Below, one piece after another: positions 7,117-52,860 of a DNA stretch of 64,000 nt. Source of the DNA: a virus. The position numbers and the translations under genes were made by a program. Where the stretch lies: positions 64,001-128,000 of the IMG/VR virus record IMGVR_UViG_3300023199_000051. One strand, 5' to 3'. Positions within the stretch are counted from its first letter, which is position 1, and each line of letters begins with the position of its first letter. The notes under the pieces were generated by a model. That model ran no database searches, had not been told where the DNA came from, and was given only the letters and a program-made list of their open reading frames with translations.

Positions 7117-7649
7117 TACTTCCCCCCGAAGAATGCTGCGTATCCCAGCATCCCCACAACGGCACCTCCGACCAGGAGGGCCCCCATCTTCGCGGTGTCC
7201 CCCTCCCACCATGACGGCTCGTACCCTTCCTCCTCCGCCTGCGGATGCCTCCGCCCGAACAAGGGCCGCTTGTTGCCAAAGAGCTTCAGCTTGGTCTTGC
7301 TCTTCGCCACAGGTGCGAAGTCGTCATTCTCATCGAGCTGCCCGATCAGTACACGCTTGCGTGCTGCGCGGAACCGACGACGCACCTTCGACACCCGAAT
7401 GCCGCGGCGCTCGGCGTCCTCTTCCATGAGCGCATCCAGCTCCCGCGAGCACTGGCCCTCCAGGTCGGGACCTGGGTTCTTGAGCACGTTGGCCATGTCT
7501 TCGAGGTCGTACTCGCCAGGCCGGTTGAGCCCCACGTACTCGACGTACCGATTGCACGCCGAGGGCCGGTGGCTCACCGGTGTGATCTCAGGAGCAAGGG
7601 CGCCGGAGGTAGCGGCGGGATAGTAGGATGGATGGGCAAATGGTTGCAC
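7116..7649 (-). CDS. Hypothetical membrane protein (basic central segment, C-terminal TM helix)
   Basis: ORF track 177 aa; GALLVGGAVVGMLGYAAFF hydrophobic tail; stop coupled to start of giant ORF; start codon uncertain. Confidence 0.75.
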   Translation of the reverse strand: MQPFAHPSYYPAATSGALAPEITPVSHRPSACNRYVEYVGLNRPGEYDLEDMANVLKNPGPDLEGQCSRELDALMEEDAERRGIRVSKVRRRFRAARKRVLIGQLDENDDFAPVAKSKTKLKLFGNKRPLFGRRHPQAEEEGYEPSWWEGDTAKMGALLVGGAVVGMLGYAAFFGGK

Positions 7650-7662
7650 AGGAGGCTCGCTT

Positions 7663-10600
7663 ATGGCTGCACAGGATCATAGCCGGTTGAGGCGTCGAGC
7701 ACCGATCGACATGGATGATGCTCCCGGTGACCTGCCGGAGCGCGGCGTCGTCGAGCCTCTGTCGCTGGCCGATGCTGCTCGGACTTACCGGGCGCTGGGC
7801 ACCCTTGGCCGGAAGATCCTGCCCTACCTCGAACAAGCCCGAGACGTCGTGTGCACACCGGTCGGGCGCCGCACTGTGATCAAGTCGCTGGACTACGTGT
7901 GCGCCACGCAAGCCAAGTCCCGTGTCAGCCGCAAGGCCCTCAGGGTCGAGCCCAAACTCGTCGAGAGACTGGCTACCACCATCGAGCGGTCACCCTGTGG
8001 CTGCGGCGTGTCGCCTGCGCAGCAGAAGCGTGCCGTGGAGTACCTGCACGCGCTGTCGCAGACCATCGAGCCGGTCCCTATCGGTGGCGGTGAGACGATC
8101 TACTCCGGCGAGATGGGCGTCGATGCAGCCGCCATGTGGCAGATGATGACCCAGGACCTGTACGGCGACAACGACCTCGTTGCGCTAGCGGTCCGCGAGG
8201 CCCTGCAGAACAGCTCCGACGCCGTCAACACGGCACAGCGTTCGCGCGGGGAGCACGGCATCACGCCGGGTGAAGGGTACTTCGCTGTCACCTGGGAGGA
8301 AGACGAGGGTGGTGAGACAGGCACGCTGACCTTCGAGGACAACGGCGTCGGGATGAACCAGGACATTCTCATCAACAAGTTCCTGGTGCTTGGCGCCACC
8401 GGCAAGGGCGAGGACGTGGAGAGTGTGGGCGGCTTCGGGGTCGCCAAGGCCGTCATCCTCGGCGTGACCCCGACAGGGCGGTGGGAGGTTCACACCCGCG
8501 ATCTGGGCGCCAAGCCCATTCCGGGTTCGATGTCCTACGACGTCTACCGCATGCCCTACCGACAAGGCACCAAGATCGTCTGCTACGACGTCCCCACCAA
8601 GGACATGTACAGCCGCGTGTTCAGCGCCTGGTACGCGGTCGAGCAGCGCATCAAGGCCATCCTCGCCTTCAGTGACACTGGCCGCATCGACCTGCTGTAC
8701 AACGGGCTGCCCGTGACCACGAGCTTTCCACGTCGCCGCGGCTTCCACCTGAAGTACGCCGACCTCGACTGGGGTGATGGCAATGAGGTCACCGTCAAGC
8801 GCTACCGCCGCACGGCAGGGACAGGTTCTGGCAACTTCTACGTCCGGCTGGTCACAGGCAGCGGCGTGGGCGAGTCGAGCCTCATCCAGTTCACAGAGGG
8901 TCCAGGCGGTGACACGATCATGAAGTCGGACATCGTCATCGACATCCGCACGACCAACCGGCCCCGCGACACCGAGTACCCCCTCAATGCCAGCCGCGAC
9001 CGCTTCAAGAGTGCGTCGAGTGCTAGCTGGGCCTTCCGTCAGCTCAAGGAGACGTTCATCCGCGAGTCGGCCAGCGCCGATGAAGATCGGGAGTATGACA
9101 CGCTGCTTCCAGACTCATCCGACCCCAAGGAGCGGAAGGGAGCGGAGCAGTTCGGTGCGGCTATGCGGAAGGTGATGGAGGACGATGACTTCAAGGCGAT
9201 GTACGACGAGGTCATGGGCGTCGCCTCCGAGTTCTACGAAGAGCAGCAAGAGGTGAAACAGGAGCCAGACGTCTCCAAGGGAGAGCGTCAGGTACCCGTA
9301 CCTGGGGAGAAGAAGCCGGATCCCTATGCAGGCTGGCGGCAAGTGCAGCGTGCCATTCCGAAGACGGCCGAAGAGGCCGACACGACTGAAGGGCGCAGGA
9401 AGCTCGGTGAGGCCATCGAGGTGGTCCTCACTGACATCGAAGGTGGGAAGCCGGGGCAGCTCGTGTGGGGTGACACCAAGGATGCCCTCACGAGCTTGCA
9501 GGCTGGAGGCAGCATCAACGACTGGCAAGCCAAGGCGCTGCTCGATGCCTTCGACAAGGCCCCTGACATCCAGGCCAAGGACAAGGACCAGGTCGGTACG
9601 AGCAACGTAGCGACCAGCATGACGCTGTCCGAGCTGGGCAAGCGGGTCAGCGATCTTGTACAGCGCAATCCAGCTGTGCCCGCCTACGTCAAGGAGGAGG
9701 TGAAGAAGAAGGCAAGCAAGGTCAACCCGTTCGGCACGGCAGGTGCGGTCAAGATCAGCCGTCAGAACTACGACAAGCGCAAGGCCCGGCGCTTCCTGAA
9801 GAAGGCTGCGAAGTACATCCCCATGCTCGTGCTGTGGGACATCACGCTACGCATGATCGCGCAGGAGGGTGGCGTTCAGATCCCCTTCCGCCCCGGCTTT
9901 GTCCTCGACGACACCGTGCGGGGTGTGTGCGCCTCGGAAGGCGAAGCGGGCAGCTACGAGTTTCGCAACTACGTGATGGTTCATCCTGACCGCCTCAAGG
10001 AGACCGTCAAGGCCCACAAGAACCACCCGAACGCCATCGCCACCTACCTACACACGGTCGCGTGCCACGAGATCGCACACCTCCCCCGCATCGGGCAGGG
10101 CCACAACGAGAGCTTCGTCGTTGCTCGCGAAGACCTGGCCTTTGGCACGGCACACCTGCTGCCCGCCATCGAGAAGGCAGTCGTCAAGACGCTCAAGCTC
10201 GACCCCAAGCCAAGCAAGGCGCTGCGGAAGAAGCTCAATGCTGCCCGCCGTGAAGGCCGCAAGCAGGGTCGTGACCAGTATCGCGACAAGGTCAAGAAGC
10301 TGCGGAAGCAGCTCCGAGAGCTAGAGGCCGATGCTGCCAAGGACGACAGGGACGTGGACAAGCTGCTCGACGAGTACGAGGACATTCGCCAGGACCGGGA
10401 TCGCCTCAAGCGCATCGTCGAGAGTCGACAGGAGGCTACTGGCGCGCTGGTGGCACGCCTCAACGCCCTGGTCGACTACCACGACTTCCGCGCGTGGCTC
10501 AAGCAGAGCGGCACTCCGTTCCTACCAGAAGGGACCAGCGCTCTCGACTTCCTGGACTGGCTCGATCAGCACCCTCGTATGGCAGCTGATGCCTTCTTGG

Positions 10601-11263: not shown

Positions 11264-11587
11264 TCATCCTGCATCCTCAGTCTGTCGGGCCTTCCGGTGG
11301 GCACTGAGCACTCGCCGCATTTCTGGCTTGCTACGCGACACCGTGCGGATTTGATGGCTCCGATCGAGTAGCACATTGCTGCCCTGCTTCGCGCAGTGAT
11401 CGGTCTCGCCATTGTCCCACCACACCCGATCTCCGGCTGCGAGAGGGCACATGCCGTCAGACGTCCACTTCTTCCAACGCACGACGACGCCGCGGTAGTC
11501 GTGCCCGCCACCTGCATCACCCAGCTCTACAACACGCATGGTGCGGTAGTTGGTCTGGCCTGCCTTCCAGCAAAGGTCATCTGGCAC
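11264..11587 (-). CDS. Hypothetical protein (107 aa)
   Basis: AGGAGG 6 nt before GTG at 11587 (MPDDLCWKAG...), in frame with track ORF 11264..11644. Confidence 0.55.
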   Translation of the reverse strand: MPDDLCWKAGQTNYRTMRVVELGDAGGGHDYRGVVVRWKKWTSDGMCPLAAGDRVWWDNGETDHCAKQGSNVLLDRSHQIRTVSRSKPEMRRVLSAHRKARQTEDAG

Positions 11588-11650
11588 CGCACGCCTCCTG
11601 GCTCTCAGAGCACTACACCATGAGACTGTAGCGTGTCGTGCCACAAGATG

Positions 11651-12244
11651 CTAGGCAGCGCCTACGAACTGCTGCCAGTCTTCGGGGAGCCCTTGCTTCT
11701 GCAGGATGATGCGCAAGCTCTCGCGCGCATTTGGCTGTGACGGTCGCTGGGGCAGGAAGCCGGCCTCTTCAGGTGTCTTGTCTCCCTTGGCGTGGTTGCA
11801 CGGCTTGCAGGCCGTCACCACGTTGTCCCAGCCCGTGACCGGTACCTTGTGCCCACTCCACGGCAGCTTGACCAGCACGCGACGCTCAGTGCCGCGACGG
11901 ACCTCGAAGCTCCGCGAGCGCGGCACGACGTGGTCGAGGGTGAGCTTGTGGGTTGCTGGAGAGCCGTCACGCCGCAGGGGCCGGATCCCGCAGTACACGC
12001 AGGCGTACCGGTCGCGGGCGAAGACGTTGGCACGCTTGTAGCGCACCCGGCCACCATCGCTGACATACTCCTTGACGGCCACGACGCTGGGCCACGCCAT
12101 CTCGAAGTTTGCCGAGCGAATGACCTTGCCAGCTGCTTCGCAGATCACGTTGACCTTCTCGGCGAGGATCAGGCACACAGCCCGCTCCCACGACACGACG
12201 TGGAGCGGTGCGAAGTCGGCGTTGAGTACGAGTACGGAGTCCAT
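11651..12244 (-). CDS. HNH endonuclease (McrA-like)
   Basis: MDSVLVLNADFAPL..RANVFARDRYACVYCG..LTLDHVVPRS..WDNVVTACKPCNHAKG; true start at 12244, the upstream part of the track ORF is tRNA sequence. Confidence 0.9.
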   Translation of the reverse strand: MDSVLVLNADFAPLHVVSWERAVCLILAEKVNVICEAAGKVIRSANFEMAWPSVVAVKEYVSDGGRVRYKRANVFARDRYACVYCGIRPLRRDGSPATHKLTLDHVVPRSRSFEVRRGTERRVLVKLPWSGHKVPVTGWDNVVTACKPCNHAKGDKTPEEAGFLPQRPSQPNARESLRIILQKQGLPEDWQQFVGAA

Positions 12245-12298
12245 GACGATCGTCCCTGCCGGAGAATCTACATCGCGTGTGCATGGTCTGCAACAAAG

Positions 12299-12374
12299 TG
12301 GCGCCCTCGGCAGGGCTCGAACCTGCACCCGTCGGCTTAGGAGGCCGCCGCTCCTCCAGTTGAGCTTCGAGGGC
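12299..12374 (-). tRNA. trnR: tRNA-Arg(CCT)
   Basis: Cloverleaf, loop CT-CCT-AA, TTCGA T loop, encoded CCA. Confidence 0.92.
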
Positions 12375-12378
12375 ATTG

Positions 12379-12455
12379 TGGAGCGCCCAGGGGGACTCGA
12401 ACCCGCCAACGCACGGCTTAGAACACCGGTGCTCATCCAGTTGAGCTTCAGGCGC
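12379..12455 (-). tRNA. trnR: tRNA-Arg(TCT)
   Basis: Loop GT-TCT-AA, encoded CCA. Confidence 0.88.
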
Positions 12456-12460
12456 ATGTA

Positions 12461-12537
12461 TGGAGCTGCCGGCGGGAGTCGAACCCGCACCTCCAGGGAT
12501 GAAAACCCCGGCGACCTTCCAGTGGTTCCACGGCAGC
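12461..12537 (-). tRNA. trnE: tRNA-Glu(TTC)
   Basis: Loop TT-TTC-AT, encoded CCA. Confidence 0.85.
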
Positions 12538-12543
12538 GTGAAG

Positions 12544-12618
12544 TGGTGCGCAGACAGGGACTCGAACCCTGGACAGCCCCCATGTAAAGGGGGATCCTCA
12601 CCGTTCGGACTTCTGCGC
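12544..12618 (-). tRNA. trnV: tRNA-Val(TAC)
   Basis: CCCCC-TT-TAC-AT-GGGGG, encoded CCA. Confidence 0.92.
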
Positions 12619-12621
12619 AGA

Positions 12622-12697
12622 TGGTGGAGCCAGTGAGAATCGAACTCACCACAGCTTGCTTGCAAGGCAGGCTCGCCCCCTTGGAACATGTGACCCC
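12622..12697 (-). tRNA. trnA: tRNA-Ala(TGC)
   Basis: Loop CT-TGC-AA, G3:U70 pair, encoded CCA. Confidence 0.9.
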
Positions 12698-12704
12698 ATC
12701 GCAG

Positions 12705-12780
12705 TGGAGTGGGTGACGGGAGTCGAACCCGCCTGGGCCGGCTTGGAAGGCCGGTACCTCACCATCGAGGAGACACCCAC
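12705..12780 (-). tRNA. trnG: tRNA-Gly(TCC)
   Basis: CCGGC-CT-TCC-AA-GCCGG, U73, encoded CCA. Confidence 0.92.
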
Positions 12781-12841
12781 ATTGGAAGGTTCGAAGACAG
12801 CCTCTTCGACGGACACTCTGGCTACCCTTCCTCTCGCCATC

Positions 12842-12909
12842 TGGAGCCCCGCCGGACATCGAAGTCCGCATGGCGGGATACAACGCCGCACTAGGCGCCT
12901 GCACGGGGC
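12842..12909 (-). tRNA. Atypical 68-nt tRNA with reduced D arm; anticodon TGT (Thr) or GTA (Tyr) depending on register
   Basis: 7-bp acceptor GCCCCGT/GCGGGGC, T stem CGGAC/GTCCG with 6-nt loop, UCCA end. Confidence 0.6.
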
Positions 12910-12910
12910 A

Positions 12911-12988
12911 TGGTGTGAGGAGGTGGGACTTGAACCCACAGCGCACCTCTTCAGCGAGGCTGCCCCTCCCTGCTGGCACCCTCCTCAC
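12911..12988 (-). tRNA. Atypical or pseudo tRNA (8-bp acceptor stem, distorted Phe-like CTGAAGA anticodon region)
   Basis: GTGAGGAG/CTCCTCAC, T arm GTGGG-TTCAAGT-CCCAC, best anticodon stem GCCTC/GAGGT leaves a 6-nt loop GCTGAA; ACCA end. Confidence 0.55.
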
Positions 12989-12997
12989 ATTGATAGG

Positions 12998-13073
12998 TGG
13001 CTGGGGCGGCGGGAATCGAACCCGCGGTGACCGGGACCAAAATCCGGTGCCTTACCGACTTGGCTACACCCCA
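12998..13073 (-). tRNA. trnQ: tRNA-Gln(TTG)
   Basis: U1-A72, loop TT-TTG-GT, encoded CCA. Confidence 0.92.
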
Positions 13074-13077
13074 GCAA

Positions 13078-13148
13078 TGGAGGCGGCGCCCGGAGTCGAA
13101 CCGGGACGGCTGAGGTTGCAACCCAGCCTCCGGCCGCCGGTCACCGCC
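13078..13148 (-). tRNA. trnC: tRNA-Cys(GCA)
   Basis: Loop TT-GCA-AC, U73, encoded CCA. Confidence 0.88.
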
Positions 13149-13155
13149 CATCAAG

Positions 13156-13231
13156 TGGCTGCCCCTTCAGGGATCGAACCTGAGTCTCTCGGTTCAGAGC
13201 CGAGTATCCATGCCAGCTGGACCAAGGGGCA
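13156..13231 (-). tRNA. trnQ: tRNA-Gln(CTG)
   Basis: CTCGG-CT-CTG-AA-CCGAG, U1-A72, encoded CCA. Confidence 0.92.
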
Positions 13232-13234
13232 ATG

Positions 13235-13310
13235 TGGTTGAGGCCCTGGGAGTTGAACCCAGCACGCTGCACTTATCAGGCGCGGCAGAGCTACCGGCAT
13301 CTCGACCTCA
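13235..13310 (-). tRNA. trnI: tRNA-Ile(GAT)
   Basis: Loop CT-GAT-AA, weak D arm, encoded CCA. Confidence 0.8.
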
Positions 13311-13311
13311 A

Positions 13312-13389
13312 TGGCGCCTCGTCTGGGACTCGAACCCAGCACCTCTCGATTAACAGTCGAGCGCTTCGAACCAGTTGAGCTTCCGAGGC
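13312..13389 (-). tRNA. trnN: tRNA-Asn(GTT)
   Basis: CTCGA-CT-GTT-AA-TCGAG, G73, encoded CCA. Confidence 0.92.
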
Positions 13390-13393
13390 AAGA

Positions 13394-13468
13394 TGGTACT
13401 GCCGGCGGGATTCGAACCCGCACCTCCCCGGCTGAGAACCGAGTGACCTTCCTGTAGTCGACGGCAGC
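13394..13468 (-). tRNA. trnE: tRNA-Glu(CTC)
   Basis: CTCGG-TT-CTC-AG-CCGGG, encoded CCA. Confidence 0.9.
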
Positions 13469-13545
13469 GTGTGGACGAGGCAGTTTTTGCAGCCGGCTAC
13501 TGCCCCCGACGACACGTCCCGTGCCGGGTCTTCTGCAGACCAAGA

Positions 13546-13620
13546 TGGTAGCGCGGGTTGGAGTTGAACCAACGAACTGAGGGGTATGAACCCTCCGTGC
13601 GACCGTCGCACCGCCGCGCA
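13546..13620 (-). tRNA. trnfM: Initiator tRNA-fMet(CAT)
   Basis: Loop TT-CAT-AC, three consecutive G-C pairs at base of anticodon stem, 1:72 mismatch, encoded CCA. Confidence 0.85.
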
Positions 13621-13626
13621 TCAAAG

Positions 13627-13702
13627 TGGTCGGGGTAGCAGGAGTCGAACCTACCGCTTCTTGCTCCCAAAGCAAGCGTCGCACCAACGCGACTCTACCC
13701 CG
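13627..13702 (-). tRNA. trnP: tRNA-Pro(TGG)
   Basis: CTTGC-TT-TGG-GA-GCAAG, C1-G72, encoded CCA. Confidence 0.92.
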
Positions 13703-13709
13703 AGTGAGG

Positions 13710-13787
13710 TGGCGGGAATGACGGGGCTCGAACCCGCTGACTCCGACGTGACAGGCCGGTGCATCGTCCAACTTCTGCTCCATCCCC
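13710..13787 (-). tRNA. trnD: tRNA-Asp(GTC)
   Basis: Loop CT-GTC-AC, G73, encoded CCA. Confidence 0.92.
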
Positions 13788-13788
13788 A

Positions 13789-13866
13789 TGGGGTGAATGA
13801 CGGGTCTCGAACCCGCTACCTCGCGGCCCACAACCGCACGCTTCGACCACTTCAGCCTCATCCACC
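13789..13866 (-). tRNA. trnH: tRNA-His(GTG)
   Basis: Loop TT-GTG-GG, encoded G-1 opposite C73, CCA. Confidence 0.92.
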
Positions 13867-13867
13867 A

Positions 13868-13943
13868 TGGCACCCTCAGCGGGGATCGAACCCGCAACCT
13901 CTGCCTTCGGAGGGCAGCGCTCATCCTGTTGAGCTTCGAGGGT
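13868..13943 (-). tRNA. trnR: tRNA-Arg(CCG)
   Basis: CTGCC-CT-CCG-AA-GGCAG, encoded CCA. Confidence 0.92.
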
Positions 13944-14003
13944 GCAGAGAGGGCTGGTAGGCCCTCTCGCAGACCATACGTATGCACGATGTCAAAGAAG
14001 AAA

Positions 14004-14079
14004 TGGCTGGGGTGGTGGGACTCGAACCCACAGCCGCTCGATTCGTAGTCGAGTGCTCATCCAGTTGAGCTTCACCCCA
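14004..14079 (-). tRNA. trnR: tRNA-Arg(ACG)
   Basis: CTCGA-CT-ACG-AA-TCGAG, encoded CCA. Confidence 0.92.
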
Positions 14080-14104
14080 TCAGGTGGACCGTAGCCCACA
14101 AACG

Positions 14105-14142
14105 ACGAAGCCCCCGAGGCCGTGAGGCGCCGGGGGCTTCGT
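14105..14142 (-). terminator. GC-rich hairpin, intrinsic terminator or attenuator candidate
   Basis: ACGAAGCCCCCG...CGGGGGCTTCGT 12-bp stem followed on the minus strand by CGTTTGT. Confidence 0.65.
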
Positions 14143-14315
14143 TGAGGCTGTGTCTGTTCGACGGCTACCTCATGCCACCCCCGGCTGCGGGCTCGTTCGG
14201 GATCTGATGATCCGCGACTCGCCGCACCACGCATGTACCCGTACCTTCGGGCCTGGCGGCTCGCTGGGATCTGGGGGTGGTTGGGAAGGTGAGCATGGAA
14301 GGTGTACCTCTGTCT
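14143..14315 (-). ncRNA. Structured leader or small RNA (long interrupted rod)
   Basis: Nested pairings 14167-14175/14293-14303, 14175-14182/14273-14280, 14209-14217/14261-14271, 14221-14225/14256-14260; lies between a promoter and a hairpin. Confidence 0.5.
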
Positions 14316-14321
14316 GCCTCA

Positions 14322-14350
14322 GGTCTACTGGACCTGGCCGCTGCCGTCAA
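14322..14350 (-). promoter_or_regulatory. sigma70-type promoter
   Basis: TTGACG-17 nt-TAGACC. Confidence 0.6.
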
Positions 14351-14363
14351 GAAAAAGGTGAAA

Positions 14364-14452
14364 TGGAGGAGAGTAGAGGAGTCGAACCCCCACGCGCGGA
14401 GCGCACCCCCAGCTTTCGAGGCTGGTCGCCGGCCTTCCCAGCGGTACTCTCC
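14364..14452 (-). tRNA. trnS: tRNA-Ser(CGA)
   Basis: CCAGC-CT-CGA-AA-GCTGG, long variable arm, encoded CCA. Confidence 0.92.
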
Positions 14453-14455
14453 AGG

Positions 14456-14544
14456 TGGAGGAGAGAGGCGGAATCGAACCGCACGGCTTGTCACCGCGCA
14501 CCGGGTAGCAACCGGCCCCCCGCACCAGCTAGGGGTCTCTCTCC
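14456..14544 (-). tRNA. trnS: tRNA-Ser(GCT)
   Basis: Loop TT-GCT-AC, long variable arm, encoded CCA. Confidence 0.9.
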
Positions 14545-14550
14545 ATGAAG

Positions 14551-14626
14551 TGGCAGGCGCGGTGGGACTCGAACCCACAGCCGGCGGGTTTGGAATCCGC
14601 TGCTCGGCCAGTTGAGCTTCACGCCT
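14551..14626 (-). tRNA. trnW: tRNA-Trp(CCA)
   Basis: Loop TT-CCA-AA, G73, encoded CCA. Confidence 0.92.
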
Positions 14627-14631
14627 TCAAG

Positions 14632-14718
14632 TGGTGCTCGGGGCGGGGGTCGAACCCGCACGGGATTGCTCCCACCAGGGCCTAAACCTGGCGCGTCTTC
14701 CGCTTCCGCCACCCGAGC
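14632..14718 (-). tRNA. trnL: tRNA-Leu(TAG)
   Basis: CCAGG-TT-TAG-GC-CCTGG, long variable arm, A73, CCA. Confidence 0.92.
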
Positions 14719-14723
14719 AAGGG

Positions 14724-14799
14724 TGGTGGGCTGTCTGGGGATCGAACCCAGCGCCTCCAGATTAAGAGTCTGGTGCATCGCCAATGATGCTTACAGCCC
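14724..14799 (-). tRNA. trnK: tRNA-Lys(CTT)
   Basis: CCAGA-CT-CTT-AA-TCTGG, encoded CCA. Confidence 0.93.
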
Positions 14800-14804
14800 G
14801 CAAG

Positions 14805-14880
14805 TGGTGGCACCGGTAGGAATCGAACCCACGTCTCCTGGTCTTCAGCCAGGCGCTTGAACCGTCTCAGCTACGGTGCC
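14805..14880 (-). tRNA. trnF: tRNA-Phe(GAA)
   Basis: CCTGG-CT-GAA-GA-CCAGG, encoded CCA. Confidence 0.93.
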
Positions 14881-14881
14881 A

Positions 14882-14970
14882 TGGTGGTCCTGGTGGGAGT
14901 CGAACCCACACGAGGGTTGCCCCTCACCGGAGCTTGAAACCGGCGCGTACTCCTGTTTCGCCACAGGACC
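14882..14970 (-). tRNA. trnL: tRNA-Leu(CAA)
   Basis: Loop TT-CAA-GC, long variable arm, encoded CCA. Confidence 0.92.
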
Positions 14971-15013
14971 TTGAACAACAGCGATGTCAATGAGCACGGG
15001 GCACCCTGCAACA

Positions 15014-15053
15014 ACGAAGCCCCCTCCGGCCGGGTGGCGGGAGGGGGCTTCGT
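15014..15053 (-). terminator. GC-rich hairpin, intrinsic terminator or attenuator candidate (related to 14105-14142)
   Basis: ACGAAGCCCCCTCC...GGAGGGGGCTTCGT 14-bp stem followed on the minus strand by TGTTG. Confidence 0.65.
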
Positions 15054-15164
15054 AGACGACAGTGTGCGACGCTACCGAGACCCCTCCGAGCCAGGCTTCA
15101 GCCAAGACAGCGTAAAGCTGCTGGTGAGTGAGCTGGGAAGGGTGAGCAAGTGTGTCATGGTGGT

Positions 15165-15193
15165 GATGTAGCAGATGCAGGGTGTGGTGTCAA
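15165..15193 (-). promoter_or_regulatory. sigma70-type promoter for the tRNA array
   Basis: TTGACA-17 nt-TACATC with extended -10 TG. Confidence 0.65.
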
Positions 15194-15206
15194 CACTGAG
15201 GCGTGA

Positions 15207-15243
15207 CGCCCCCCGAGGACTACTCGTGAGTGCTCGGGGGGCG
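15207..15243 (-). terminator. Hairpin downstream of the membrane-gene operon
   Basis: CGCCCCCCGAG...CTCGGGGGGCG 11-bp inverted repeat. Confidence 0.55.
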
Positions 15244-15254
15244 CTGGGTATCGC

Positions 15255-15288
15255 CGAGCATCAGGTGTGTCTCCCCACCTGATGCTCG
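15255..15288. repeat. Perfect 13-bp inverted repeat
   Basis: CGAGCATCAGGTG-8 nt-CACCTGATGCTCG. Confidence 0.85.
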
Positions 15289-15364
15289 ATTCTCTCTGCG
15301 CAGCTTTCATGCGCGCCCAGGGCATAGCGTCCCTCTCAGGTGCGTGCAAGGCCCGATCCCCAGA

Positions 15365-16123
15365 CTACGGCGTCAGCTCGGTCTCCGTGCTTCCGGGAGC
15401 TTGCCGACCGCTGGCTTCGAGCACTCTCGTGTGGCCCAGGTCCAGCTTCTCGGCGTCGAACTCCAGGTAGACCCGGTTGATCTCTGCTAGGTCTTCGTCG
15501 ATGGTGCGTAGGTATTGCTGCGGCCCTCGGGGGTCGGATGAGACCCCCTGGAGCATGAAAGACCTGATGCTCCGAGACAGGTTGTCGTGCGCGATGTACA
15601 GCGCGTGGTTCTCTTCGATGTTGTCGCTGATCTTGAGGACGGCGGGGAGGCTGCCGAAGAAGCCGCTGCACACAAGGAGGCCCATGAAGGTCGACTTGGC
15701 CGGTGCCGGGAGCCCCTGCCAGCCGGACATGCCCGTGAGGACCAAGAAGGGGGCCGTCAGCGTCCCAGTCAGAAAGGCAGTTGCGATGAATCCGAAGTAC
15801 CGGATCTGGAAGTAGCGCATGAGCCAGAAGTGGTATTCAGCGCGGGATGCAGCGACTGTCAGCTGCTCGGTGAGGCGCTGGCAGATCAGCGCCGCTCGCG
15901 GAGAACATCCTGCCTGCGTGCTGCATGCATTCGGGCCGACTTCAGGACAGCTCAGCGTCGTCAGGCATGGTGTGAGGTGGTCGAGCCCGGCGAGGTCGAG
16001 AGGACTACGCTCCGACCACCACGCGACGGTGTAGTAGTCCGCGTACATCGAAGTGGCGTGGAAGAGCCCGTGGGCTGTGAGACAGACCAGCAGGAAGGGG
16101 ATGATGGTCGGTGCATGCTCCAT
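15365..16123 (-). CDS. Membrane protein, N-terminal signal/TM plus a two-TM module resembling SLATT domains
   Basis: Likely start MEHAPTIIPFLL at 16123; FGFIATAFLTGTLTAPFLVL and FMGLLVCSGFFGSLPAVL helices followed by NIEENHALY..L. Confidence 0.65.
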   Translation of the reverse strand: MEHAPTIIPFLLVCLTAHGLFHATSMYADYYTVAWWSERSPLDLAGLDHLTPCLTTLSCPEVGPNACSTQAGCSPRAALICQRLTEQLTVAASRAEYHFWLMRYFQIRYFGFIATAFLTGTLTAPFLVLTGMSGWQGLPAPAKSTFMGLLVCSGFFGSLPAVLKISDNIEENHALYIAHDNLSRSIRSFMLQGVSSDPRGPQQYLRTIDEDLAEINRVYLEFDAEKLDLGHTRVLEASGRQAPGSTETELTP

Positions 16124-17435: not shown

Positions 17436-20400
17436 CTACACCCCCGACGCTGGCGCTTCGCGCACTTCTTGCTTGAGCTTGCTGCGCCGCTTCATCTCCG
17501 TGAAGGCCGAGCCAAGCGCAAGATCCCGCCTGCTGTATGAAAACCAGCGACGTGCGAGGCTGGTGAGCCTGTTGCTGTCTTGAGTCTGAGACAGAGGCCG
17601 CAGGGTAAGATCTCGACTATCGACGCCGAAGGTGTCGATGGCGCGTGCCCGATCACGTCGGAGGGCTTCGGTGATGCTCCCCCAGCGGTCGGCCGGCACG
17701 ACCAGCTCGAAGTCCTGTTCGAGGAGATCCTTGAGCTGCAACAAGCCCCTCTCGCCTGCGGCACGTTGCGTGTCCCTCACGATGCGTCTCAGCTGGGACC
17801 CGCTCAACAGCACGAGCAGGTCATCCGCTCTGCGCCGCAGAGGGAGGAAACCGATGTAGCTGCTGACGAGCGCACCGACGATTCGCGTGGTGACACCGAA
17901 GCCTTTGATGTTTCTGAAGGCGTTGCGCAGGATGGCCGGCCACAGATCAGGGCCGAGCCGGTCCACCACGACCTTGCTCATGGCTGGTACCTGTGGCCCG
18001 CGCATGATCTCGCCGTTGCCAAGGATGGCCTGTCTCTCCTCGGCATCGTCCCATCCGCCGCATACTTCAAGAGGTACCTTCTCGACGTGGCCCTCCATCC
18101 CCGTCTTCGTGGAGCCGATCAGAGCTGACGGGTGCTTGGCGTGCTCGACCATGGCCGAACCGTACTTTCGGTACGAGAAGAAGGTCCCCTTCGGGTCCAC
18201 CTTCAGCACCTCTACGCGCTTCGGGTTGCTGTGGAGTGCGCCATCCACAGAGCTGGTGCTGCGCAAGCACACCCGGTCGCCAGCACGGAGGATCATGCCC
18301 GTCTTGAAGTTGAAGTAGATGGCGGTCTTCTTGACCTCTTCGAGGACCGTTGCCATCCGGGGCCAGATGTCCTCACCGTACGTCTTCTCGATGGTGGCTG
18401 CGTCGCGATCTGCGGACTCCAGCCGCGCTTCGTAGAGAGCGGTGTCATCGGCCCGCTTGGCAGCGCGGGCCTCGTGGTACTTCTCAGCGAGCCGAACGAA
18501 GGCGCGGCGTGCCCGCTTACGGCGCTTGATCTTGAGGCGTTCGGCCTTCGTCTCCCTGTACTCCTCGACCTTGATGCGTGCTTCGCTCTCATCGGAGGCG
18601 AAGATCCAAATCAGCAGCTCCATGCGGTCGACCCGCATGCCCGCTGCCGGGTTGTTCATCTCGGTCACCGAGTCATCCCACAGAGACTCCATCCAGCCCT
18701 GCTTGCCCATGACCATGTTGAGCTTGAAGCCATCGAAGCTCTTGGAGGTGATGTAGTACCAGACGTTGACGAGCTGGTAGCTGTTGCCCTGGCGCACCCC
18801 GCGTCCGTTGCGCTGCTGGATGGTGGCTGCCTCCCAGGGGAGCGTCATGTGGTGAATGGCGCAGGTCCGTGCCTGCAGGTTCAGCCCCTCGGCCATCGCA
18901 CCGCTGGTGCCGATCACGACGTCGTACTTGGGCTCCAGCGCTTCTTGGATGACTGCGCCAGTCTGCTCGTCGATGATGGCTGATCGGCCGTTGAAGCCGT
19001 CTGCGATGACCAAGCGCTCCCCCTTCGACTGCTCCCCTGTGATGAAGGCGATGCGATCTCGGGGGATGCGCGTGTTGGCGACAATGGCGTCGACCATCCA
19101 CTCGTGCGTGTCCGTGTAGTCACTGAAGATGATGTGGCCGCAGGCCGGGTTGACCAGGATCTTCTCGACCAGTGCCATGTACTTTGGAGGGTACGTCCCC
19201 TTGGCGGCGTACTTGGCAGCAATGCGCCCAATGCCCACCTCGGTGAGGATGTCGAGCTTGGTCTGCAGGCTCGCCATCTTCTCACTCGACAGCCCCTTCT
19301 TGGACGGTCGCCTCTTCCGCTTCCCTTCCTGGTAGTCATCCCACTGCTGGTTGATCTTGCGGGCTTTGGCCAGGACCTCCTGCGTCTTGTAGATGTCCTC
19401 CCGCAACAGGCGCACGTCGAAGGCAGACTTCGATAGCATGTCCATCTGCCTGAGGATGATGCCGCCGACCTGAGCCGATTCACCCGCTCCCTGTGCTCGT
19501 TCCTTCTCCTCTGCGAGGAGGTCCTTGATGACTTCTTTGACTGTGTCCACGACGTGGCGCTGCTCGTCGTCCATGTCCACCACAACCTGCACGTTGCCTG
19601 TGTTGCCCACACGGGGGACCTTCTGGGCGAAGACCTCCATGCCGGGGTCGTTGGTGAGCTTGCGGTCGGTGTGAGCGAGGATGATGTCGCGAAGCTCATC
19701 GAGGTGCAGGAACTCGGTGACAGCCAGCTGATCGACAACCTCGTTGGTGGCCGGGTCACCAGATGGCTCGACCTCAAGTCCGCAGTACCGATCGATGAAC
19801 TCTTCGGCGTTGCGCACGCGGCGCTGGCTCCAGACGTTCCTGGAGACCAGTGACATCAGGTTGTAGACCTCCAGTGGGCTGTTCTTCAGCGGCGTTGCGG
19901 TCAGCAGGCACACACCGGAGTCATCGTGGTTGCCGAGCAGGTACTGGCACTTGAGGAACATGTCCCAGGCGCGGATGGTGATGCCCGAGCCAGAGCCCAT
20001 GAACTCGATCTTGTCCTCACCGACGCGCCGCTCGGCGAACCACAGGTTCTTGAAGTTGTGTGCTTCGTCGACCACCAAGAAATCGCACCGCAGCTCTTCC
20101 CAGGTGATCATCGGAGGTACAGGCACAGGCCCGTCGTAGTCCGGCGGTGGGAAGCGCTCTTCCAGGACCGCGACGATCTCCTTCTTCTTCATCTTGCGCG
20201 GCTTGCCGGTCGACGTCGTCTCGGTCGGGTGATGCTCCAGGTCGAGTCCCTTCCGCTTGGCAAAGGCGATCAGCTCGGCCTTGCGCTGGCTCTTCGACCA
20301 CTCCCGAGGCGGCTTGCGTCGTGGCCGGAAGGGCTTGGTCTCCCTGACGTTCTCCAAGTCCTGACGCACCTGCTCGATGATGTTGTCCGACGGCGCCTTC

Positions 20401-23400
20401 AGATCCTCACTCCACCCCTTGATCTGGCGTTCAAGATCCTTGATCTTCTTGTCTAGCTTCTTGATGTCTGGGTGATCCTCGTCGAGGTAGCGGATGTCCT
20501 CTTGCCTCTCCTCTCGACGCTCGGCAAGCTCCTCCTGAGCGTTGTCGATGCGCCGTTGTGTCAGCCTGCGGTCTGCCGCTTCGAGTCCGAGCTTGTACTG
20601 GAACCAGAAGACCTGGCTTAGGATGTCGTGGATGGAGCTGTCCTCCATGGCCACGTCGTCGAGGAAGTTGCTGTAGGGGACCATCAAGAGGTCGTAGTCC
20701 CCCTGTGCAAAGCGGTTCCACTTCACGCGCCGCTCATCAGCTGTGTCGTCTCGTGGCGCTCCAGACGTGGAGGGTGTGATGCCGATGACGCCGATACGGT
20801 AGTCTGGCAGCAGCTTGCGCGCTTCGCTGTACCAGGTAGGCAGCACGCTGTTCGGAGACACGATGATGGGCCGCTGCACCTTGCCGTCCTGCCGGAGCTT
20901 CGCAGCTGCGGCCAGAGCCGTAAACGTGTTGTGCAGGATGAGGCCGCCCGCACCTCCGACATAGTTCTTGTCGTCGTAGGCGCCTGCATCAACTTCGATG
21001 TCGTAGACAAAGCCTCCCACCTGCCCCTGCTCTACGGACGCAACACGCTCGAAGCAGAACCCGGAGTCGACTAGCGCTTCAAGGCGGTTTGCGGCATCAA
21101 GCAGACGATCCCCGCAGAGCACCAGCGACTCATGTGTCTGCTGGTTGCGCCAGTTGCTCGATGCTGCGTACCGCGCAATCCCAAGCTCGGAGGCTTCCGC
21201 CCGCCACTGCTGCACGAGACCCTGCGCGCGTTCCACCGAGATCGTCTCGACTCCGGCCTTGGGTACATTGCCGTGACCGTAGAGCCAGGCACGCCGGAAT
21301 CCGGCCTCCAGCAGCTCGTCCACCAGATCGCGGATGGGGATCCCCACGTTCGGGTTTCGGGTCTTTGACACCAGCTTGCCGAGGGCAGCCTGCTTGTAGT
21401 CGACGCCGAAGCCGACGTGCTTGTGGAAAGCTACGGCGTCCTCACCACTGAACGTGATCCGCCAGTAGTCGTTGTGTTCGTAGCCCTTGACCCGCTTGTA
21501 CTTCAGCGACGATCGGACGCCGAAGCGCAGCAGCATGTACTGTACCTGCTCCAGCAGCAAGCGTGATGCAGACAGCACCTCAACGACATCACCCGTGCAG
21601 GACCCCTCAGCGTCGAAGAAGGCACGAGTCAGCGTTGCGAGCAGATCGTCAGGGAGCAGAGGCAGCCAGGGAGGCAGCTCACGGCCCGCGGAGAGCACTC
21701 CCCACTTGAAGCCCAGGGCTTCCGCCTCCTGCCGGTATGCCTTGGAGCTGATCTCCAGGTAGGGCACGTACTTTCCGTCAGCGGGCGTGCGGATGTGACC
21801 CGAGGTGGAGTCGGGGTAGCACCGCCGGAAGCGAGCTTGCAGGTCTTCCAGGAGTCCGGGCAAGAGCTTCTGCGTGATGGTCGTTGTGTGGCTCGTCTGG
21901 ACGCTCGGGCTTGCTTCGCGGTCGTGCCCCTCCGCAACCTGCCAGACCATCAGGAGGGCCAGATCTTCAAGCCGCTGCGGGTCGAGGTGCGCTACCTGGG
22001 CCGGAAGAGCGGGAGGGGGTGTCAGCCGCTTGGGCACCGCCAACCAGTCTCCCGCTTCGATCTCCCCGGTCGGCACCCACGTGACACAGCCATCACGTAC
22101 GACAGGCAGCGGGTGGGCGCTGGTGGGCTCTACGCGGCATCCGCGGGTGGTCTCCAGGACACGCAGAGCCTCGTGATCCGAGATGCGCTGTCGGTATAGA
22201 CGACGCACGGGGCGCCAGGAGGCGGCACCGTCTTGCCCGTGCGCAAGCACCTTCAAATCAGCAGGAGGTAGGAGCACCAGCTCATCCTCTGGCCCTTCCA
22301 GGTGGTCTCCGAATAGGGAGCCGATGGTGACCAGGCCCGTGTTGCAGGCGAGGAGTGTGTCCTTCTCGACGCACTTGCCCAGACCGACATCGAATGCAAG
22401 GATTCCACCCCGCTTATCTGCGACCATACGAGCTCCAGAGTTCTGGTGGGGGTGCAGTATGTAGGTAGGTGCCATCCGCGCGATGTCAATTGGGCTGTCA
22501 TCGTACTCGGGGGGCACGAAACCCCGGTAGAGCCGGTTGTAGCGATCTTCGACCAACTGCCGCCACTCCAGCTGCCCCGCGAGCCAGGAGGCGAACGCCG
22601 TCTCCAGCTCCTGATCAGCCTGCATCCTTGCTTCCATGTCGGCCGTCTCGTAGCGCCTCGTCTTCTTCGGGGCTGTCTCGTCCGGGTCCGTCATCTCCAG
22701 CTGGCGGTTGTAGTAGCCCAGGAAGAAGAGCAGCCACTTGTGCTGCAGCGCCTCCCCTCTGCGGCCTCGGTCGAGGGAGTCGTTCGTCCTTGCACGCAGC
22801 ACGCCGCTCTCTTCGAACAGCTCGATGTTGGGGTGGCCACCCAACTCCTCCTGGAGCGTGTCATTGACGAAGTCTTGGAGTAGCTGGTACGGCTTAGCCG
22901 CATCGTCAAAGACGAGGTAGCCGGCCCGGATGTTCGGGTCGATATCCGACAGCGTCTTCGGATCGATCGTGGTGAGCAGCGCCTTCTTCTGCGCTTCCAG
23001 CTTCTGCCGCACATCGAAGGCCACCTCGCCGGCCAGCAGCGCGTTGACGGCATCGAGGCGCTTGTAGAGGGCGCCTGTGAGGTACTGCTCCAATCGGTAG
23101 TAGCTGTATGAGCCATCGGACTGCAGCTCGATCGCCACATCCGACCTTGCCACTAGCACCTCGAACGCCCCTACCGCCGAGTGGTGGCGCTCCAGATCCT
23201 TCTCGGTGCACACGCCGTTGTGCTTGCTGTACCAGGTAACGATCTCGGTGACGGGAGATCCCGCATGGGGAGCGTTAGACTCTCGCACGGCCAGCTTCTG
23301 CGTGAGCATGGGTACAAGCTGCCCCGCCTTGCTGACGGCTGCGAGCAGCGGAGCGACCATGTCCCGGTACCCGATCAGCTCCTCGATGTCATGCGGGTTG

Positions 23401-52600: not shown

Positions 52601-52860
52601 GCCGCTTCGACCGCTTGGGGGGCAAGGTGGCCACTACGCTGGAGTACGTGATCGCCGAGATGACGGTCGACGAAGACGTGCTCGACCACGTGGTAGTGAA
52701 GGCGGAAGATGCGGGGGAAGTGCTCGGTGATGGAGAGCTGATCGAGATGAGCGCAGTCCTCGACGGCGTCCAAGACGAAGAAGAGATACTCAAAGGCTTC
52801 GCCGCCAAGCTGCTCGCCGCTGAGAAGAAGCGCAAAGAGAAGAGGGAGCAAGCAGCATGA
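49660..52860 (+). CDS. SNF2-like SF2 helicase containing an intein
   Basis: CGAGKT, ILDESH, LTATP, KVVLFS, GEAIDGLQ, QLEGRFDR. Confidence 0.9.
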   Translation: MRGLQYRFDLRAPLVDWAAEAVGAIPGCKATKASSSDTPYLTASVSAGWLVQQQLEEWGVPHSCELKVKKAPTVPFDQLAVAPEDLEELKPAWAAKVKDFQRRGLEFLQRRLGGLAKWPCLTGDAELVVNRAGRGFRMRLDDLVHKANGGKTRGRAWDLGIPTQVRCMDDQGTIISGGLLRAFKSGSKEVFEITVEDSDGRQRSLKTTMGHRFLTPDGEKRLRELEAGHEVYIVGARKRKPRGKQAEGTRKKYLVVSAVHHHPHATSWMRHRKNRPNPYKESRVPLHRIVYEAHLSGITTEQFIARVKANELEGLTFVDPSVHDVHYIDGDAENNSINNLELLPVGDHQQHHAQEGAWRRVLPKAVPARVLSIEPKGIQPTYDLMMAGPHHNYAANDFIVHNCGAGKTFLGILFSLSYPGRTIIVTRASTTHQWAGQFRKFCQDGAVKVAVLDGTRGFRAKRAPKQTYTSWVRMHFEAESPGRIASLREQRSESGRRKAITKAFRRVLRALFEAGPEGCAVRDLPGSSGAVRNALSRFEDAGLVERHDKPDNSAWKPWVVRSTFTDRIISWHDGYEGPMLKSGEVTSLSLIEQAEDAKPAKRAHARALLLAHSNLDRKLIADRCGMSLDGVLDVLGERAAEANAEMREGVLDIEDDTDAVVVGWPVLTARRRALINWGKQDEAPLTVILDESHNAKQWSRWRAVDEPDGSVSWEPKSNTSASALLICGEAERVLCLTATPQPDRTRDLWAQLDLIDPWSFGKFRVYAMRYCGAMYNEYGIDSRGSSNQEELHKRLGFYFHIVTEEEAKRELPPLTRDMVWLPPAELASVRVSKQRWMAAKRRGATALLELKLCVTAAMKHPWLVKRVKDCILDEEKVVLFSGRRNDAENLLVAVQGMVAAERKKKRHDSTYDDFEVWMAHGGQSNKERAEILKAYIAHDGPGLIIGTIDAWGEAIDGLQSTNRALISMLPWNHGKLIQLEGRFDRLGGKVATTLEYVIAEMTVDEDVLDHVVVKAEDAGEVLGDGELIEMSAVLDGVQDEEEILKGFAAKLLAAEKKRKEKREQAA
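50017..50865 (+). mobile_element. Intein (283 aa) with HNH-type endonuclease insert
   Basis: Begins CLTGD, ends YDLMM..NYAANDFIVHN, +1 Cys; LHRIVY..VHYIDGDAENNSINNLE. Confidence 0.92.

Follow-up and report, generated by a model that had tools for sequence, protein, structure and literature searches.

Two adjacent blocks of transfer RNA (tRNA) genes in a phage genome are each preceded by a leader that is probably a ribosome-mediated (leader-peptide) transcription attenuator, with more transcription of the tRNA genes when ribosomes stall at the codons listed in the leader. The genes lie in a stretch of 64,000 nucleotides (nt), here called the window, which comprises bases 64001-128000 of the 178,164-bp IMG/VR virus record IMGVR_UViG_3300023199_000051, a sequence with direct terminal repeats and 63% G+C. 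Leader 1 (L1) precedes tRNA block 1, and leader 2 (L2) precedes block 2, the spacer between the blocks being 284 nt. Each leader carries a promoter-like sequence (P1 or P2), a short open reading frame (sORF1 or sORF2) and a strong hairpin (H1 or H2) ahead of the first tRNA gene (Table 1). The evidence comes from the codon content of the sORFs, from alternative pairings in the leader RNAs and from a replicate in a largely unrelated phage, G001.

Codon content of the leader ORFs

Codons were assigned to tRNAs by wobble rules in which G34 reads C and U, C34 reads G, U34 reads A and G, and A34 (inosine) reads U, C and A. By these rules sORF1 covers 7/7 block 1 tRNAs (codons TTG, TTT, AAG, CTG, TGG, AGC and TCG), and sORF2 covers 18/18 canonical block 2 tRNAs, including four Arg species (CGA, CGG, AGA and AGG) and both Glu species. 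An odd tRNA-like gene in block 2 (12911-12988) and its possible smaller neighbour were excluded from this test. The p values for sORF1 and sORF2 respectively are 0.0023 and 0.0005 against stop-free windows from the six frames of the genome, 0.0014 and 0.0019 against random open reading frames (ORFs) with the codon usage of the phage, 0.0007 and 0.0045 against mononucleotide shuffles of the ORF, and 0.0028 and 0.021 against dinucleotide shuffles. Full coverage in each leader is confined to the sORF frame, and the result holds after the weaker tRNA calls are dropped.

Each roster also avoids the tRNAs of the other block. sORF2 has one block 1 codon where 7.6 are expected (p = 0.002), and sORF1 has five block 2 codons where 13.9 are expected (p = 0.0005). 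Own-block against other-block codons number 10 vs 5 in sORF1 and 24 vs 1 in sORF2 (Fisher p = 3.3e-5). As in attenuators, the leader codons match the products of the genes downstream; that these products are tRNAs is a new form of the correspondence.

Alternative pairings in the leader RNAs

Leaders were folded with RNAfold and duplexfold. In both, segment 1, near the start of the sORF, can pair with a G-rich segment 2 at its end (-22.2 kcal/mol in L1, with 15092-15067; -26.7 kcal/mol in L2, with 14185-14164). Segment 2 contains the stop codon of the sORF and a second sequence common to both leaders, GGUAGC(C)GUCG. It can alternatively pair with segment 3, which together with segment 4 forms the predicted terminator hairpin. 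Tested against dinucleotide shuffles of the upstream sequence, this 2:3 duplex has an energy of -24.5 kcal/mol in L1 (shuffles -16.3 +/- 2.9, p = 0.010) and, with GCCCCCGGC of the terminator arm, of -25.9 to -27.6 kcal/mol in L2 (p = 0.022), and it is the minimum-energy fold of L1, L2 and the G001 leader when segment 4 is omitted. GGAGGGG of L1 has CCCCUCC and ACCCUUCC as its partners, and GCCGGGGG(U) of L2 has CCCCCGGC and CCACCCCC; the sequences of segments 1, 2 and 3 differ between L1 and L2, and the complementarity is kept.

In these models the 2:3 helix would exclude the terminator in L1, L2 and G001, as the antiterminator of an attenuator does. Segment 1 lies within the ORF, and the stop codon is placed where a ribosome reaching it would be predicted to mask segment 2. 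All folds of L1 also contain an inner hairpin within sORF1, which could be a pause hairpin; its counterpart in G001 is at 8220-8196.

A similar leader in a second phage

The stem ACGAAGCCCC..GGGGCTTCGT of the leader hairpins has a generic terminator form and occurs after ordinary genes in at least 118 other IMG/VR stretches. Among 117 other loci with the generic hairpin, which were checked for tRNA genes, there was one hairpin-headed array, locus L049 on contig IMGVR_UViG_3300025150_000004 (G001; 142,891 bp, 64% G+C), which was thus found through the hairpin alone. The two phages are largely unrelated: 3/477 ORFs of G001 have weak protein matches in the genome of the window, and blastn finds only the hairpin.

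The G001 leader has the same arrangement of promoter-like sequence, short ORF, segments and hairpin (Table 1). Its 1:2 helix is 12 bp long, the stop codon of its ORF falls 4 nt past segment 2, and it retains the pairing core CACCUUC, without the full leader motif described below. The antiterminator duplex has an energy of -30.4 kcal/mol, compared with -19.8 +/- 2.7 for shuffles, none of 400 of which reach this value (p < 0.0025). Of the 16 distinct anticodons of the array, 15 have a codon in the ORF, including three Thr species, Tyr, Trp and Glu-CUC (p = 0.0007 against windows of its own genome and against dinucleotide shuffles), and the only anticodon missed belongs to an atypical 83-nt 'Ile-UAU'. 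When the weak Trp call is removed, coverage is 14/15 (p = 0.001-0.003). Roster codons occupy 21/25 positions before segment 2 and 2/7 within it (p = 0.01). In G001 a Tyr tRNA goes with two TAC codons in the leader ORF, and both a Lys tRNA and an AAG codon are absent, whereas the reverse is found in block 1 and sORF1 of the window. This contrast is a first hint that roster codons are gained and lost along with the tRNAs.

It could be argued that the leaders are diverged duplicates in which similarity, GC-rich complementarity and codon content only appear designed. The leader motif alone is not significant, the number of promoter-pattern matches is near the chance level, a wrong-frame stretch of L2 also has high coverage (see below), and GC-rich RNA always offers alternative pairings. 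However, the three rosters (sORF1, sORF2 and G001) have a combined p of 6.7e-6 under the strictest null (composition-preserving shuffles), the three 2:3 antiterminators have a combined p of 6.6e-5, and the roster recurs in a phage with little else in common with this one. Chance is thus scarcely credible as the source of the pattern, and neither it nor any of the other alternatives discussed below accounts for the rosters and the replicate together.

Further searches concerned relatives of the locus. Megablast and blastn against isolated phages gave tRNA matches only. Three neighbouring proteins searched against IMG/VR gave nothing or one distant match, and in a set of 5.8 billion proteins the upstream 291-aa protein, a spurious ORF overlapping L2 and an antisense 66-aa ORF matched themselves or nothing. 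The detailed hairpin pattern had 0 matches in IMG/VR; the module GGTAGC..ACGAAGCCCCC had 12 matches in metagenomes, none near a tRNA and at about the chance level; and neither a second pattern nor a G001 neighbour protein led to further arrays. The small annotated ORFs that precede groups of tRNAs in Mycobacterium phage Estes show no roster signal (p = 0.23-0.89), in a comparison of low power with 1-9 tRNAs per group. Streptomyces phage Kenrey is unsuited to the test because its tRNAs are interspersed with small ORFs.

In two gaps of the G001 (L137) array, 7618-7790 and 6403-6745 (minus strand), there are sequences that resemble tRNAs and have intact acceptor and T arms. Each is split by an insertion of about 70 nt, and the insertions have the repeat CGCTCACGRACTC..CCCTC..GGGGAG in common. 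They may represent tRNA genes that have introns or giant variable arms and are missed by tRNA finders.

Proposed mechanism

From the computed sequences, alternative pairings, codon rosters and replicate, we infer promoter use, sORF translation, termination and switching as follows. Transcription from a host-type promoter (P1 or P2) would yield an RNA that opens with the short ORF, the 5' part of which carries segment 1. The last codons and the stop of the ORF would lie in segment 2, with the terminator 18-22 nt beyond. A ribosome that finishes the ORF would mask segment 2, so that the terminator forms and little transcription continues into the tRNA genes. A ribosome stalled earlier, where a charged tRNA is scarce, would leave segment 2 exposed; the 5' arm of the terminator would pair with it, and RNA polymerase would read into the block. 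Where there is no ribosome, segment 1 would pair with segment 2 and termination would be expected. P2 lies directly 3' of the last block 1 tRNA, behind a T-rich tract and without a terminator between, and H2 would therefore also gate transcripts from P1. Since the codons of each sORF match the tRNAs of its own block and avoid those of the other, the blocks would be induced separately, each by shortage of its own tRNAs, giving feedback on tRNA supply.

It is conceivable, if rather doubtful, that the switches are separate alarms for the loss of tRNA species, for instance to host anticodon nucleases or other tRNA-depleting defences, and that this recurs across largely unrelated phages. The 7-tRNA and 19-tRNA sets would then be kept in reserve and transcribed only on a stall at codons of that set, and the split would let the phage answer an attack on Leu, Ser, Phe, Lys and Trp tRNAs apart from the rest.

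Promoters and short ORFs

The sequence-only reading of the window had placed TTGAC(A/G)-17-TA(C/G)A(T/C)C, a C-rich motif and a hairpin at the head of each tRNA block, and all of these are present on the minus strand at the positions in Table 1. In the whole genome, TTGACn-17-TAnnnC has four matches, which is about the chance level by a rough estimate. All four read TAnAnC, lie between genes and are oriented towards genes or tRNAs downstream, and two of them are 24-25 nt before large ORFs. P1 and P2 are thus plausible promoters of a small class, judged by their sequence and setting. Two strong hairpins, probably insulating the tRNA unit from upstream transcription, close the upstream minus-strand operon, which ends at 15365, and the tRNA unit would therefore need a promoter of its own.

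The ATG of each sORF is the first start codon after the predicted transcription start. That of sORF1 is about 7 nt after the predicted -10, suggesting that sORF1 is probably leaderless. That of sORF2 is 25 nt after the predicted -10, equal to the spacing of protein genes behind this promoter type, and AGAGG occurs 10 nt upstream of it. Thus, if the predicted promoters and start sites are right, a short ORF with plausible initiation signals stands at or just after the start of each transcript. A homologue search with the sORF2 peptide found none except one weak match of compositional type, and sORF2 was accordingly rejected as a conserved small protein.

The phage also has a separate and well-defined promoter family of about 21 nt, TGTGCCACnnCAGGCTACATT, which differs from the TTGACA type of the tRNA leaders. 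Copies are found on the plus strand at genome positions 14942, 17082, 21210, 31119, 32688, 151791, 163485, 170177 and 175886, and another, TGTGGCACGACACGCTACAGT, is just after the HNH gene described below (window ~11624-11645, minus strand). L1 was considered as a member of this family and rejected, as it has only GCTACAT in common with it. Other -35-like sequences occur in and near the arrays. TTGACATCG, at 13990 after tRNA-Arg(ACG), recurs at 14990, 15 nt before the first tRNA of block 1; G001 has a TTGACA (8020) 50 nt before its first tRNA, between the terminator and the array; and TTGAC(A/G) has four sense-strand sites within 1.25 kb where about 0.5 are expected. A usable -10 was sought behind the two copies of TTGACATCG and the G001 TTGACA, and none was found.

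The leader motif

The motif TGCTCACC(C)TTCCCA has two matches in the window where 0.58 are expected, a number reached by 13 of 100 shuffles, and so is not significant alone. The shorter pattern CTCACC(0-4 nt)TCCC has six sites in the genome. Four are intergenic, namely the two tRNA leaders and two mRNA leaders (genome 21240 and 31149), and all four are 18-28 nt downstream of a promoter -10. The two mRNA leaders are on the plus strand behind promoters of the TGTGCCACnnCAGGCTACATT family, and their CTCACC(CC)ATCCCCC, which resembles the motif of the tRNA leaders, forms the 3' arm of a hairpin near the 5' end, immediately ahead of the ribosome-binding site.

The motif had earlier been described as in frame in both sORFs, which is correct for its first 8 nt and fails beyond them owing to a 1-nt indel. 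The likeness to the anti-Shine-Dalgarno sequence that had been remarked on is real. Both this likeness and the conservation of the motif follow from its pairing with the GGAGG-like segment 2. A resemblance to the rrn boxA had also been proposed. The E. coli rrn boxA consensus is TGCTCTTTAACAA, with which the motif has only TGCTC in common, and a search of 11500-16000 with Rfam, at E up to 1, found no family related to rrn boxA, T-box or 6S and none that matches the leaders. An rrn boxA/Nus site was rejected on these grounds, and a T-box riboswitch on the Rfam result.

These observations bear on factor-dependent processive antitermination, in which the C-rich motif would be a nut-, boxA- or put-like site loading a host or phage factor, and the polymerase would ignore H1 and H2. 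The location of the four intergenic sites shortly downstream of a promoter would suit such a site, and a conserved promoter-proximal RNA element followed by terminators is the textbook layout of lambda nut and HK022 put. However, boxB- or boxC-like partners of the motif were not found, the two mRNA leaders carry it simply as a hairpin arm, and its conservation in the tRNA leaders is explained by the pairing with segment 2. G001 keeps only the pairing core CACCUUC of the motif. The codon rosters are left unexplained, and antitermination of this kind seems very unlikely. The original suggestion of a dedicated antitermination or attenuation switch thus survives in its second half, which gains from the alternative pairings, the codon rosters and the second phage, whereas its antitermination half is unsupported.

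The leader hairpins

The claim that related hairpins head the two blocks is borne out: the pattern GAAGCCCC..GGGGCTTC has two sites in the window where 0.00 are expected, and the same two are all that the 178-kb genome contains. Beyond the generic stem, H1 and H2 share a lower stem of 13-14 bp, a C.C mismatch, a GCC/GGC upper stem and a 4-nt loop, and they end 43 and 25 nt, respectively, before the first tRNA. Hairpins of at least 11 pairs number nine in the 178 kb, and three of the nine are at 15014-15288; this criterion missed H2. A simple terminator scan made no call at H1 or H2.

If H1 and H2 were constitutive leaky terminators or insulators, each promoter, sORF or small RNA and hairpin would form an independent unit, and the tRNAs would be made by unregulated read-through and processing. 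The common occurrence of the stem after ordinary genes in other phage contigs fits this, as does its position directly after tRNAs in three loci (L035, L071 and L080). The L2 leader, moreover, folds as a long interrupted rod, and its promoter-to-ATG spacing is that of real genes. On the other hand, neither the listing of own-block codons and avoidance of other-block codons, seen in the G001 roster too, nor the complementarity of segment 2 to both segment 1 and the terminator arm in 3/3 leaders is explained in this way. No 6S or other Rfam family and, apart from the one compositional match, no homologue of the sORF2 peptide was found, and the 25 nt from H2 to the first tRNA leave no space for another promoter. 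Leaky termination alone is therefore considered unlikely. 6S RNA (14143-14315) was a specific candidate for such a small RNA and was rejected on the absence of a 6S match, the rod fold being the 1:2 conformer of L2.

A further possibility is that the hairpins do not terminate at all and serve the processing or stability of the tRNA precursor, for example as sites for RNase III or RNase E or as stems that protect the 5' end, with the sORFs and motif incidental. One pair of H2 is G.U and is possible only in minus-strand (tRNA-sense) RNA; this shows selection on the sense RNA, and fits termination and processing alike. Other spacers of the array have hairpins as well, for example GAGAGGGC..GCCCTCTC before tRNA-Arg(CCG) (~13947-13968) and others in 13469-13545, and the U-tracts behind H1 and H2 are imperfect. 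However, the leader hairpins (-31 and -36 kcal/mol) are far stronger than the spacer hairpins, T-rich sequence follows them on the tRNA-sense strand only, and the roster statistics and alternative pairings would have no explanation. A role in processing alone is thus given little weight.

Points against attenuation

A number of observations weigh against control by leader peptides. With respect to the promoters, the -10 hexamers of P1 and P2 end in C and not in the nearly invariant T, and a scan for consensus promoters called none at P1 or P2. With respect to the rosters, the hypothesis was post hoc, formed on the peptides, and the G001 test alone was set up beforehand. About 40-46% of sORF codons are read by no phage tRNA, and a wrong-frame stretch of L2, 43 codons long, still covers 16/18 tRNAs. 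The sole Ser-CGA codon of sORF1 and the sole Gly-UCC codon of sORF2 are inside segment 2, and because of this position stalling at them should not yield read-through. Host tRNAs read the roster codons too, so a sensor of this kind would register the total pool.

With respect to structure, the U-tracts (UGUUG behind H1 and CGUUUGUGG behind H2) are, as already noted, imperfect, the L1 antiterminator (-24.5 kcal/mol) is much weaker than the L1 terminator (-36 kcal/mol), and the leaders, when folded without the terminator, exceed shuffles in structure only modestly (z = -1.3 and -2.3). Close relatives, which deep covariation would require, were not found in the searches described above.

The coding status of sORF1 is also open to question on two counts. 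Its G+C content at first codon positions (GC1) is below that at second positions (GC2), which is atypical of genes, and it is overlapped by an antisense ORF of 66 codons (14971-15171, plus strand) with gene-like GC1/GC2/GC3 of 0.63/0.43/0.78. The third codon positions of this antisense ORF coincide with those of sORF1, and it has no homologue in the set of 5.8 billion proteins, no usable start context and no evident promoter; on this evidence it was judged probably spurious and rejected as a gene. The G001 leader is likewise covered by an antisense ORF, rich in Arg, Pro and Gly.

Comparison with known systems

Enterobacteria have multivalent leader-peptide attenuators in ilvGMEDA, ilvBN and thr, and related attenuators in trp, his, leu and pheA. 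Leaders of the ilv/thr type resemble those described here in having four segments that can pair as 1:2, 2:3 and 3:4, a leader peptide overlapping segment 1, a stop codon at which a finishing ribosome masks segment 2 and several different regulatory codons per leader. However, the ilv/thr-type operons serve to make amino acids, and their leaders rely on runs of a few regulatory codons, whereas here the output is tRNAs, and mostly single codons stand for 7 or 18 tRNA species, down to isoacceptors (four Arg, two Glu, two Ser and two Leu).

The T-box also couples tRNA status to read-through of a terminator via an antiterminator. It differs in binding one uncharged tRNA directly, in being independent of translation and in controlling synthetase and amino-acid genes. 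The rrn boxA and lambda nut resemble the present leaders in that a conserved RNA motif near the promoter precedes terminators in a stable-RNA operon; they differ in that 5 of about 12 boxA positions are matched here, boxB and boxC are absent, and the motif is explained by pairing within the leader.

The closest parallel that has been studied by experiment is the whiB7/wblC upstream ORF (uORF) attenuator of Actinobacteria. It responds with activation when tRNAs, aminoacyl-tRNA synthetases or genes of amino-acid synthesis are knocked down (Poulton et al. 2023, PMC10274678). There, too, a promoter-proximal short ORF is ahead of a terminator and a competing antiterminator, and stalling in the ORF leads to read-through (PMC10274678). 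The codon content of the uORF sets the shortages that are sensed, and a single Trp codon suffices for Trp shortage (PMC10274678), which answers the worry that single codons are too few. whiB7 operates in high-GC bacteria, which may include the host of this phage. The whiB7 output is a transcription factor that governs a stress and drug-resistance regulon, whereas here it would be the tRNA genes themselves, closing a feedback loop. The present phage also has a pair of predicted switches, and the codon list of each matches its own block and is depleted of codons for the other. Loss of the uORF start codon raises whiB7 expression, whereas here the modelled 1:2 helix predicts termination without translation.

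Leaderless, Cys-rich (polycysteine) short ORFs of mycobacteria, which begin at the 5' end of the transcript, are reported to act as attenuators of downstream genes (bioRxiv 10.1101/834739), a precedent for the predicted leaderless sORF1. They sense one amino acid by Cys runs and control cysteine-related operons. sORF2 and the G001 ORF differ from them in not being leaderless.

A literature search found no paper on leader-peptide control of tRNA genes, and nothing on how large phages, many of which carry tRNA genes, control them. What is new here is the tRNA genes as output, a roster down to isoacceptors and two complementary switches in one array. If the proposal is true, the tRNA cargo of a regulatory ORF could be read by a simple rule from the leader peptide, the codons of which name the tRNAs that follow, and leader-peptide attenuation would extend from amino-acid and stress genes to stable-RNA genes. 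Phages would supply tRNAs on demand and not constitutively, which is relevant to the debated question of whether their tRNAs are there to suit codon usage or to counter defences that target tRNAs. In annotation, the codons of an ORF before an array would predict which tRNAs form one transcription unit, and the partition into two blocks is a built-in specificity control that makes the roster idea directly testable.

The tRNA array and neighbouring genes

Every tRNA gene of the window is on the minus strand, at 12299-14970. ARAGORN called 22 of them, and Rfam and relaxed ARAGORN added Asp-GUC (13710-13786), Arg-UCU (12379-12455), a weaker Ala-UGC (12622-12697) and the odd tRNA-like RNA at 12911-12988. 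The last has good acceptor and T arms; its ARAGORN 'anticodon' has two letters, the loop was read as the six-letter GCTGAA, and Rfam gives a weak tRNA-Sec-like match (25.8 bits). A second, smaller tRNA-like stretch may be present just downstream, in the 130-nt gap 12781-12910 (region 12842-12988, minus strand).

Table 1. Positions of the leader elements, tRNA blocks and related features. Coordinates are those of the window unless G001 is named; promoters, segments and terminators are predictions.
Feature	Position	Strand	Description	Basis
Hairpins upstream of P1	15207-15243; 15255-15288	-	14 pairs; 13 pairs	genome-wide hairpin scan
Promoter P1	15193-15188; 15170-15165	-	TTGACA, 17 nt, TACATC	sequence pattern
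sORF1	ATG 15158 to TAG 15074-15072	-	28 codons, MTHLLTLPS...	
L1 segment 1	15131..15150	-	5' strand of anti-antiterminator helix	RNAfold, duplexfold
L1 motif	15148-15134	-	within segment 1	
L1 inner hairpin	15098..15127	-	within sORF1	L1 folds
L1 segment 2	15067..15092	-	GGCUCGGAGGGGUCUCGGUAGCGUCG, includes sORF1 stop UAG	folding
L1 terminator H1 (segments 3+4)	15014..15053	-	-36.0 kcal/mol, 14+3 pairs, then UGUUG	folding
tRNA block 1	14364..14970	-	7 tRNAs, first tRNA-Leu(CAA), start 14970: Leu-CAA, Phe-GAA, Lys-CUU, Leu-UAG, Trp-CCA, Ser-GCU, Ser-CGA	ARAGORN, Rfam
Promoter P2	14350-14345; 14327-14322	-	TTGACG, 17 nt, TAGACC	sequence pattern
sORF2	ATG 14296 to TAG 14167-14165	-	43 codons, MLTFPT...	
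L2 segment 1	14273..14294	-	GCUCACCUU..CCACCCCC	folding
L2 motif	14295-14282	-	in segment 1	
L2 segment 2	14164..14185	-	GCCGGGGGUGGCAUGAGGUAGC, includes sORF2 stop UAG	folding
L2 terminator H2 (segments 3+4)	14105..14142	-	-31.3 kcal/mol, then CGUUUGUGG	folding
tRNA block 2	12299..14079	-	~19 tRNAs, first tRNA-Arg(ACG), start 14079: Arg-ACG, Arg-CCG, His, Asp, Pro-UGG, Met, Glu-CUC, Asn, Ile, Gln-CUG, Cys, Gln-UUG, odd tRNA-like RNA(s), Gly-UCC, Ala-UGC, Val-UAC, Glu-UUC, Arg-UCU, Arg-CCU	ARAGORN default + relaxed, Rfam
G001 promoter	8330-8325 (TTGACA)	-	TTGACA, 17 nt, CATAGT	
G001 ORF	GTG 8256 to TAA 8155	-	33 codons, first start codon after predicted start site	
G001 segment 1	8240-8227	-		
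G001 segment 2	8179-8161	-		
G001 terminator	8129-8091	-	-32.1 kcal/mol, tail CGUUUAAG	
G001 tRNA array	7965 to 3191	-	~20 genes, interrupted by HNH and GIY-YIG endonuclease genes	

The 60-nt spacer between tRNA-Arg(ACG) and tRNA-Arg(CCG) (13944-14003, minus strand) holds TTTCTTCTTTGACATCG and the hairpin GAGAGGGC..GCCCTCTC, which has 8 bp and abuts the next tRNA. Directly 3' of the last tRNA, across a hairpin-free junction, is an HNH endonuclease gene (11652-12244, minus strand; Pfam HNH E = 7e-7), which is probably co-transcribed with block 2.

Elsewhere in the window, two helicase genes have insertion-like segments resembling inteins. In the second SNF2-type helicase (49660-52860, plus strand) the insertion is of HNH type, with both matches just below the cut-off. 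In the giant methylase/SNF2 helicase protein (17436-24989, minus strand) the Intein_splicing match is below the Pfam cut-off, and the insertion is LAGLIDADG.

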